From Escherichia coli (GTDB lineage: Bacteria; Pseudomonadota; Gammaproteobacteria; Enterobacterales; Enterobacteriaceae), in the NCBI RefSeq assembly GCF_044324875.1, contig NZ_CP172185.1: 64,000 nt of DNA; one strand, 5' to 3'. Under the pieces are notes generated by a model. It worked only from the letters and a program-made list of their open reading frames with translations, searched no databases and was not told the origin of the DNA. This document shows, in pieces, positions 17,654 to 20,317 of this stretch. Positions within the stretch are counted from its first letter, which is position 1; each line of letters opens with the position of its first letter. A program made the position numbers and the translations under genes.

Positions 17654-18986
<1,333 letters not shown>

Positions 18987-19005: not shown

Positions 19006-19030
19006 ATTCTCCAGACAGTGTCTGGAGAAT
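19006..19030. repeat. 25-bp palindrome ATTCTCCAGACA-G-TGTCTGGAGAAT between convergent yhcH and yhcG; probable bidirectional terminator and member of a local palindromic repeat family
   Basis: Perfect 12-bp arms around a 1-nt centre, read directly. Confidence 0.6.
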
Positions 19031-19045
19031 TCGAAACCGCTGAAA

Positions 19046-20134
19046 TTAACGGCGTCTATAGCCTTCCTCTAGCACCGCCTGTGTTCGAACGAGTTCATCT
19101 GCGAGTCGTTTCTCATCAGGTAGTTGCATCTTATATTCGCTTGCCAGAACGGTGTTAGGCAAACCTGCCAGAGCATAATGCGCTTCGCCGGCTCCTTTCT
19201 CTGCACAGAGAATCAGACCGATGGGCGGATTTTCATCCGGTAGCGTCCAGTGATCTTTGGCGTAGTTGAGATACATATTCATCTGTCCGGCATCGCTATA
19301 GCTGAATTTGCCCACTTTTAGATCGACGATTAGCAGGCAGCATAAACGGCGGTGGAAAAACAGCAGATCGACACGAAACCAGTTATCATCAATGCGTAAC
19401 CTTCGCTGCCGACCAACAAAGGCAAAATCATCCCCAAGTTCCAGCATGAAATCCATCAGGTGGTTGATCAGCGCCTCCTCGAAATCAGATTCTGAATATT
19501 CATCTTTCAATTCCAGAAATTCGAGCACAAAGGGATCGCGTATCGCCTGCTGCGGAAGAATATGCGTCTCGGTAGGAGCGTGTTGTTGCAGCATGGCTGA
19601 TTTGTCATGTGACAGTAGTGTTCGCTCATAAAATTGGGTCGCAATTTGCCGCTCTAGCTGGCGAACAGACCAGCCACAGCGGAGCGTCTCTTTTTCATAA
19701 AAGCTACGAGCGTCAGCGTTTTTAACAGAAAGCAAACGGACGTAAGTGGACCAGGGCCGGGGGAAAGATTTGGCAGACAGCGTCTGCCAAATCTTTCCCG
19801 ATGGGAATTCTGCAGACGGTGTCTGCGGAATTTCAACATGTTGAAAAAAGAGGTAAAAAAGTCTCATTTGGCGCAAGTTTTTTGCAGAGAACCCACGCTT
19901 ATACCTTAGACATAAATCCTTTGATAGTCGCTTGATTAGCTGCGCACCATACGCAGCCCTGGCCTCGCCACCTTGTTCAAATTCGACAATTCGTCGGCCA
20001 ATTTCCCAGTATGTCGCGGTCATCAGCGCGTTAACGCTACGTACCGTTTCCGTCCGGGCGCTATCGACCAGGTGAATAATACCGTCGTGGATTTGCTGGT
20101 AGCCTGTTGAGGTTCTCTCTGAGAGCGATTCCAT
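19046..20134 (-). CDS. yhcG: YhcG, DUF1016 protein with predicted PD-(D/E)xK nuclease fold
   Basis: 362-aa ORF MESLSERTSTGYQQIHDGIIHLVDSARTETVRSVNALMTATYWEIGRRIVEFEQGG... Confidence 0.85.
   Translation of the reverse strand: MESLSERTSTGYQQIHDGIIHLVDSARTETVRSVNALMTATYWEIGRRIVEFEQGGEARAAYGAQLIKRLSKDLCLRYKRGFSAKNLRQMRLFYLFFQHVEIPQTPSAEFPSGKIWQTLSAKSFPRPWSTYVRLLSVKNADARSFYEKETLRCGWSVRQLERQIATQFYERTLLSHDKSAMLQQHAPTETHILPQQAIRDPFVLEFLELKDEYSESDFEEALINHLMDFMLELGDDFAFVGRQRRLRIDDNWFRVDLLFFHRRLCCLLIVDLKVGKFSYSDAGQMNMYLNYAKDHWTLPDENPPIGLILCAEKGAGEAHYALAGLPNTVLASEYKMQLPDEKRLADELVRTQAVLEEGYRRR
19761..19832. repeat. Two adjacent palindromic units inside the yhcG reading frame, related to the 19006-19030 palindrome
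   Basis: 19761-19799 perfect 18-bp arms around AGC (GGGAAAGATTTGGCAGAC/GTCTGCCAAATCTTTCCC); 19805-19832 imperfect copy GAATTCTGCAGACGGTGTCTGCGGAATT; shared core CAGAC(A/G)G(C/T)GTCTG. Confidence 0.6.
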
Positions 20135-20317
20135 TATCTGTCCCTTTATATGGCGCTGCGTTGAATAATGGAATCAGCTATACGCCGGGCATCTACCGGT
20201 AACAATCCAGATGTGCGTATTACATTGGTTTTCTTCAGATTATGCGAGGCGCTTTCCAGTACGAAAGGAGAATTTCAGCGCCGACTCTTTTCTGAGGAGG
20301 CGGCGCTGGGACAGAGT

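Follow-up and report, generated by a model that had tools for sequence, protein, structure and literature searches.

An intragenic palindrome in the linker DNA of yhcG and its DUF1016 relatives, a family of predicted PD-(D/E)xK nucleases

Proteins of the YhcG/DUF1016 family (PF17761 and PF06250; COG4804) were predicted to be PD-(D/E)xK nucleases by Feder and Bujnicki in 2005, and the family motif was given as E-D-E(I/L/V)K (PMC1189080). The family comprises 23,855 representative clusters at E ≤ 0.001. Under the name PDC-S02 it is listed as a candidate defence system, and a representative from a cold seep did not protect Escherichia coli B from T4, T5 or T7 (PMC12881386). DUF1016 genes are also enriched adjoining the targets of programmed inversion (odds ratio 17; PMC9881135). 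In E. coli, deletion of yhcG is synthetic-lethal with hypomorphic dnaB, dnaN and parE, and network links connect YhcG to HsdMRS, McrBC and integrases (PMC2672614). A literature search returned no biochemical report for any YhcG/DUF1016 member. Here we analyze yhcG in a 64,000-nucleotide stretch of E. coli DNA (RefSeq assembly GCF_044324875.1, contig NZ_CP172185.1; hereafter the window) and describe a palindrome inside its coding sequence that recurs throughout the family. An initial annotation of the window held that nothing establishes a function for YhcG, which overlooks the synthetic lethalities above. It also took the palindromes for a peculiarity of this locus, whereas they are conserved across DUF1016 and are the most informative feature of the gene.

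The yhcG coding sequence in the window lies at 19046–20134 on the minus strand (ATG start, 362 amino acids plus stop), as identified from the list of open reading frames (ORFs) and from RefSeq orthologues named yhcG, 'PDDEXK nuclease domain-containing protein'. We are highly confident that this ORF is an intact member of the family. Pfam places a helical DUF1016_N domain at residues 19–171 (19622–20080, minus strand; E 4e-41, 140.7 bits against a gathering cut-off of 32.8), broken by a linker, and a YhcG_C PD-(D/E)xK nuclease domain at residues 195–347 (19094–19552, minus strand; E 3e-56, 190 bits against a cut-off of 32.5), which bears out the original description of a poorly characterized DUF1016/PD-(D/E)xK protein. 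The catalytic D...(D/E)xK residues that the annotation had named as the point to check are all present, as part of a complete E...D...(D/E)xK motif whose column conservation was read from an alignment of 34 relatives (A2). Its codons, all on the minus strand, are E215..E219 (19478–19492), conserved acidic residues in the first helix of the nuclease core of which E215 is invariant and E219 at least 90% conserved; D256 (19367–19369), the invariant catalytic aspartate within RVDLLF; and D271-L272-K273 (19316–19324; GATCTAAAA on the coding strand), the (D/E)xK motif, in columns at least 90% conserved. They are joined by Q284..Y288 (19271–19285, minus strand; GQMNMY), a QxxxY motif that we take to be RecB/Cas4-like and whose Q284 and Y288 columns reach at least 90% conservation. 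The protein itself is already known, as a nuclease predicted since 2005. It is the E. coli orthologue proper, full-length and with both domains and the orthodox E-D-(D/E)xK motif; the sole protein-level difference to be set against this likeness is one 13-amino-acid linker unit fewer than in K-12.

In structure models, the nuclease domain of YhcG comes closest to NucS/EndoMS, and the NucS-type catalytic fold is present. This likeness is one of fold only: sequence identity to the NucS/EndoMS mismatch endonuclease (PDB 2vld, 5gke) is 12–15%, the N-domain of YhcG is all-helical, unlike the DNA-binding and dimerisation domain of NucS, and mismatch specificity or clamp binding by YhcG is without support. 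The window protein gave no match to NucS/DUF91 in Pfam and no significant match in PDB sequence searches. In the latter, it returned only 'DciF' (PDB 9vtc, 9lwv; E 0.85) over residues 70–101, which hold the conserved DUF1016_N motif GFS..NL..MR.FY, and the family profile returned only chance matches to uL24m; a literature search on DciF gave nothing relevant. NCBIfam yielded no match to the window protein, and PHROGs only a family of unknown function.

A weak resemblance links the helical N-domain to the DNA-binding domains of ParB and KorB, with ParB, Spo0J, KorB and SopB as the top fold matches. The parS site often sits within the parB/spo0J gene itself, and KorB binds a 13-bp palindromic operator whose centre is G/C. 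YhcG is comparable to the ParB/Spo0J–parS and KorB–OB pairs in that its N-domain may fold similarly (a weak match) and in that an odd palindrome with a central C or G lies inside yhcG. To our knowledge, parS inside parB/spo0J is the nearest analogy to this intragenic palindrome. A different kind of likeness is to REP/RAYT systems and to quasi-palindrome template-switch hotspots, which share with yhcG short perfect palindromes with complementary arms tied to a nuclease-type gene, a centre that flips and rearrangements that break at the palindrome. Unlike REP/RAYT, however, the yhcG palindrome is not dispersed, lies in frame within a coding sequence and comes without a Y1 transposase.

A palindrome in the linker DNA of DUF1016 genes

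In the window, the linker and its palindromes come straight after the first helical subdomain (~95 amino acids) of YhcG. The linker-coding DNA (19760–19846, minus strand; ~residues 97–125) varies in length between alleles and encodes a disordered segment, with pLDDT of 49–63 over residues 100–120. It bears a perfect 39-nt palindrome (19761–19799) with 18-nt arms, a 3-nt centre and the coding-strand core CAGAC-GCT-GTCTG, and a second, slightly imperfect unit of 27 nt (19805–19831; GAATTCCGCAGACACCGTCTGCAGAATTC on the coding strand). An orphan copy stands in the 59-bp spacer between nanQ and yhcG (19006–19030); all three features are strand-neutral. The in-frame palindromes first reported for this locus are real: CAGACNNNGTCTG occurs three times in the 64-kb window (at 19012, 19774 and 19813), all at yhcG, against 0.06 expected. 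As single-stranded DNA, the two internal units together (19755–19840) fold with −28 kcal/mol (z −8.15).

We then compared 80 DUF1016 loci from diverse bacterial and archaeal genomes. In nearly every gene scanned among the homologues of other phyla, the longest perfect hairpin falls at the same site, at ~nt 240–370 in the DNA encoding the disordered linker. Perfect stems of 8 bp or more were present in the 230-nt linker region of 47 of 74 genes and in the remaining ~800 nt of 7, and a stem of at least 10 bp in 33 against 4 (Fisher p 3e-8), even though the rest-of-gene control is 3.5 times longer than the linker region. When each gene was recoded synonymously according to its own codon usage, no more than 1% of trials attained the observed stem for 39 of the 74 genes. 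With mismatches allowed, 77 palindromes were found in 62 of the 80 genes, archaeal ones included, and the palindrome-bearing members include Altiarchaeales, Nanoarchaeota, Woesearchaeota and ANME-2 contigs. Within DUF1016 genes, odd palindromes with a score of 10 or more have a density of 0.405 per kb, compared to 0.034 per kb over 709 kb of flanking sequence. The family consensus is ATTnnnCAGACA-S-TGTCTGnnnAAT, again an odd palindrome in disordered-linker DNA. Its centre, C in 44 cases and G in 29, falls on the first base of a codon in 74 of the 77 palindromes. The encoded linker peptide is variable (QT.S, ES.I, ST.S, HA.R, QS.T, NA.R and others); it is the palindrome that is conserved instead. 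A check for coevolution between core and protein traced apparent rapid switches of the core (L045 against L043) to diverged tandem copies.

Amino-acid sequence does not account for the palindrome. It stays perfect in Salmonella and Pseudocitrobacter although synonymous sites are saturated. Triplets in its arms change and yet remain complementary (CCG/CGG, CTG/CAG, CGC/GCG, GTG/CAC), and because this complementarity is kept, coupled amino-acid changes are forced, for example E to Q. In a gap-free alignment of 62 palindrome sites, with Watson-Crick and G-U counted as pairs, 91.6% of cells were paired compared to 69.7% in shuffles (0 of 500 reached the observed value) and 25–41% when the partner column was slid; these sites were picked for being palindromic, so the paired percentage is inflated, whereas double changes and unselected comparisons are unaffected. 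Changes on both sides were seen in 12 of 13 pairs, amounting to 169 cells where 57 were expected. None of the 62 sequences departs from the outermost A-T pair, and the apical ACA-S-TGT is strongly conserved.

The nature of the pairing bears on which nucleic acid is under constraint. G-U pairs make up ~0.4% of stem cells, mismatches show no G-T excess (11 G-T against 18 A-C), and symmetry extends down to a single central base in 53 of the 77 palindromes. With no G-U excess and symmetry to a single central base, the constraint is alike on both strands and therefore concerns DNA rather than mRNA. Judged from these sequence comparisons, the evidence points to a constraint that acts at the DNA level. 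A scan of the palindrome against Rfam gave no match better than E 0.3, no Rfam family describes it, and no paper that we found connects this palindrome with DUF1016 or YhcG. A family-wide intragenic palindrome in DUF1016 thus seems to be previously undescribed.

The association with DUF1016 was also recovered from DNA alone. Metagenome contigs were scanned for the pattern ATTNNNCAGACASTGTCTGNNNAAT, blind to protein, which gave 127 sites at 120 loci. A tblastn match to DUF1016 overlaps 94 of these sites and lies within 450 nt (E ≤ 1e-5) of 97; at E ≤ 1e-3, a further 5 sites have DUF1016 in the locus (4 adjacent or overlapping, 1 ~1 kb off), and 25 are orphans, without a match anywhere in the locus. 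The NNN triplets left unconstrained in the pattern are fully complementary in 83 of the 127 sites, compared to 1.6% by chance. This complementarity is found in 75 of 102 gene-associated sites (74%) and in 8 of 25 orphans (32%; p 3e-4).

Many of the metagenomic orphans resemble decayed gene remnants, being tandem pairs or a divergent gene such as L195. We considered whether orphans mark a general cassette boundary and rejected this, as outside E. coli only one locus (L014) has a consensus-type orphan near the gene. That copy is intergenic (L014 4702–4732) and stands beside a gene with a SIR2_2 domain; the DUF1016 gene, from Ignavibacteria, follows 2.4 kb downstream. Another orphan-like copy, in L041, sits in a tandem paralogue. 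Finally, two groups of orphans (L096 3658, L101 1176 and L120 5440; L099 1734, L106 3975 and L196 760) each share ~200 nt of flanking homology at loci without a DUF1016 gene; a truncated IS3-like integrase ORF adjoins one group, and a second G+C-rich hairpin the other. These flank-sharing copies might be parts of larger repeated elements.

Gene and palindrome in E. coli

The yhcG gene is convergent with the nan operon, as first described: nanQ (yhcH) ends with its stop at 18986. The gene was also rightly called stand-alone, with no partner gene adjoining it in the window. On the other side, the end of gltD lies 183 bp upstream of the yhcG start, and the intervening DNA (20135–20317) is without gltF-yhcADEF, as in most E. 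coli. The initial annotation had placed yhcG at the edge of a gltF-yhc deletion, and this is ruled out by gene order in other genera (gltB-gltD-yhcG-codBA-nanQ in Salmonella, gltB-gltD-yhcG-nanQ in Pseudocitrobacter) and by the junction found in the majority of E. coli. At a minimum of 80% of its length, the window yhcG/gltD junction is present in 3138 of 5426 complete E. coli genomes (58%), and K-12 departs from the window sequence ~55 bp upstream of yhcG. Because gltD-yhcG adjacency is common to these genomes, Salmonella and Pseudocitrobacter, the K-12 gltF-yhcADEF cluster is an insertion, and the local history is corrected accordingly: the arrangement in the window is common and apparently ancestral.

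The neighbourhood is likewise not the variable, defence-type setting that had been proposed, as the position of yhcG is kept across genera and the gene is under purifying selection. dN/dS is 0.14–0.29 among E. coli alleles and ~0.09 against Pseudocitrobacter, and synonymous sites are saturated against Salmonella. YhcG is under long-term purifying selection and is not recent cargo. At least 80% of the yhcG coding sequence is found in 3347 complete E. coli genomes (62%), so that an intact copy is missing from ~38%; 962 have none of it, and one particular truncation is present in 719 of the 5426 (13%), BL21 included. The gene is dispensable in E. coli, and is a long-resident chromosomal copy.

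E. coli YhcG alleles of 349, 362, 370 and 375 amino acids differ at the linker by 39-bp units, with one unit in the 349-residue allele, two in the 362-residue allele and three in the 375-residue allele. The window allele is one such unit shorter than the 375-residue K-12-type allele, and its closest match in a complete genome (97.9% identity) is 39 bp longer. The identical 362-residue protein is recorded on 166 public contigs labelled E. coli. This allele carries Cys265 (HRRLCC; codon 19340–19342), a position occupied by Arg in E. coli relatives and by Arg or Lys in most of the family, together with an L124R substitution (FPLPW).

An E. coli genome has the palindrome at a median of 2 places and a maximum of 6, and the copies examined were all at the yhcG locus; a dispersed REP-like (REP/MITE) element was rejected on the basis of this median. 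The orphan in the nanQ/yhcG spacer varies among strains, with compensatory arms (TCTCC/GGAGA against TCTGC/GCAGA) and a flipped centre, and E. coli without yhcG retain one perfect palindrome in the 67 bp that separate nanQ from gltD (L213 2501–2529). The orphan palindrome was not called as a terminator in a simple terminator scan. In the spacer it could serve a separate purpose, possibly by forming a hairpin where two genes converge.

The palindrome is also where yhcG breaks. The junction of the BL21-type truncation coincides exactly with the end of the arm in the third palindrome, with ...GTCTGCCAAAT to the left of the junction and TGAGAGG to its right, and an IS1-associated form of yhcG breaks at ~nt 346 of the gene, also in the palindrome region. 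Because both kinds of break map there, the palindrome is a natural rearrangement site; it is a naturally fragile spot in E. coli, with 13% of complete genomes truncated exactly at this point. In the BL21-type form (L086 2530–3001; ~19046–19770 in the window), ~470 bp stand in place of the orphan palindrome and the C-terminal two-thirds of yhcG, and code for a 101-amino-acid ORF annotated as 'transposase'. Replacement by a hairpin-targeting insertion sequence is unsupported, since Pfam gives no match for this ORF and, of the two junctions, just the left one falls at a palindrome.

Possible roles of YhcG and its palindrome

Some DUF1016 genes elsewhere have neighbourhoods unlike that of yhcG in the window. 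Among 116 immediate neighbours of the homologues in the 80 loci, we found N6_Mtase 10 times, Methylase_S 6 times, Eco57I 5 times and ResIII 4 times, and a topoisomerase IV/gyrase subunit A domain in 3. Some homologues are inserted in restriction-modification operons. These include type I operons in the order hsdM-DUF1016-hsdS with overlapping stop and start codons (L004 5130–9315; L006 5151–9315), and type III operons in the order mod-DUF1016-res with overlapping or abutting starts and stops (L054 5790–11127; L070 4932–11082). In a flavobacterial locus (L034 5001–10839; neighbours scanned individually), DUF1016 stands between a gyrB/parE-like and a gyrA/parC-like gene, a layout notable given the synthetic lethality of the E. 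coli yhcG deletion with the parE hypomorph. Judged by ORF layout alone, L040 is similar. The topoisomerase placement in L034 may be a single lineage event.

Our preferred explanation is that YhcG is a two-domain, metal-dependent DNA endonuclease, in which a NucS/RecB-like C-terminal catalytic domain would be combined with a helical ParB/KorB-like N-domain. Probably dimeric, the enzyme would act on DNA that is dyad-symmetric or in hairpin/cruciform form, and the linker palindrome would be a cis-acting DNA element tied to its activity, either as a self-binding or regulatory site (as with parS within parB) or as a sample of the YhcG substrate. In E. coli, its likeliest role would be in the processing of abnormal DNA structures or replication intermediates, and in other lineages the same module is embedded in restriction-modification operons. 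The nuclease activity of YhcG, its binding to the palindrome and its biological role are inferred; this picture is in keeping with the NucS-like core, the N-domain resembling palindrome binders, the synthetic lethality with replication and decatenation hypomorphs and the restriction-modification and topoisomerase neighbours of relatives. We assign a probability of roughly 40% to the reading of YhcG as a site- or structure-specific DNA endonuclease with its own cis-acting palindrome and a role on abnormal DNA or replication intermediates. The narrower proposal, that the palindrome is the cognate element of DUF1016 nucleases, co-inherited across bacteria and archaea and recognized as a hairpin or cruciform, so that each gene would contain a specimen of its enzyme's substrate for autoregulation or for sensing DNA-structure stress, is one that we consider possible but doubtful.

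The strongest rival is that the palindrome has no function. A short chance palindrome in a tolerant, disordered linker could have been perfected, extended and duplicated by intrastrand template switching (quasi-palindrome correction) and slippage, in which case the covariation would reflect concerted evolution of the arms and the function of YhcG would be unrelated. Much of what we observed is compatible with such a process. Pairing is strictly Watson-Crick with no G-U excess, arm length ranges widely (8 to 21 bp), and the left arm of unit 3 in E. coli resembles an inverted copy of the ancestral AAATCTTTCCC segment. Tandem duplication is recurrent in many lineages, as in the E. coli alleles with 1, 2 or 3 copies; the centre is flipped between strains; the site is fragile, with the truncation junction exactly at an arm end in 719 genomes; and ~25% of genes have lost the palindrome. 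Other features speak against it. The palindrome occupies one homologous position in bacteria and archaea, in proteins only ~40% identical. The apical ACA-S-TGT and the invariant outer A/T pair are far better conserved than neutral drift of paired arms would leave them, and it is arm pairing that dictates residues, with P/R/L/V covarying with A/G and E with Q. Complementarity is moreover better in gene-associated copies than in orphans. We regard a functionless palindrome as a serious contender, if improbable on balance.

Alternatively, YhcG could be an anti-phage or anti-plasmid nuclease, acting as a single-gene restriction-like or abortive-infection effector that would cleave invading or host DNA upon infection, with the copies in restriction-modification operons forming a second line behind restriction. 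The window protein matches the PADLOC profile of PDC-S02 (PDLC04807) over residues 8–357 with E 3.1e-133 and a CRISPR-associated PD_DExK profile, also from PADLOC, with E 3e-51. With relatives embedded in type I and type III restriction-modification operons, 'defence or DNA-processing candidate', as the gene was first labelled, is fair. The enrichment at programmed-inversion targets cited above and the variable presence of yhcG in E. coli would also suit a defence gene, as would the carriage of the family on 514 of 72,556 plasmids (194 of the 514 conjugative); among phage records, DUF1016 was found in only 14 of 50,697. On the other hand, PDC-S02 is a candidate system only, and its sole tested representative was unprotective. 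The window copy is fixed between metabolic operons, in a position common to three genera and with no defence island: its flanking ORFs are nanQ and gltD, with no adjacent methyltransferase of the kind expected in a type II restriction-modification system. A location among other defence or mobile genes is seen instead in a minority of distant relatives. The known phenotype of yhcG concerns replication, not phage, and a defence role leaves the intragenic palindrome unexplained. A pure defence role for YhcG is compatible with the contexts of the family but is supported neither for this locus nor by the single reported experiment, and we consider it unlikely.

An mRNA hairpin, whether it paused translation behind the first subdomain, was cut by an RNase or served as an autogenous translational operator, would fit an element with strong stems that lies within the transcript directly behind that subdomain, but is very improbable given the lack of G-U enrichment, a symmetry down to the single central base that an RNA loop does not need, the lack of an Rfam match and the persistence of the element outside transcribed genes.

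The DUF1016 palindrome is a rare case in which a strong constraint at the nucleic-acid level overrides protein sequence inside an ORF. DUF1016 is among the most frequent candidate defence genes (as PDC-S02). The palindrome offers a concrete and cheap hypothesis, namely that the DUF1016 enzyme binds or cuts that sequence or structure. If the palindrome is indeed the cognate element of these proteins, it would provide the first experimental handle on the substrate of an abundant, uncharacterized family of nucleases and defence candidates, and would explain why DUF1016 is so frequently wired into restriction-modification and topoisomerase operons.

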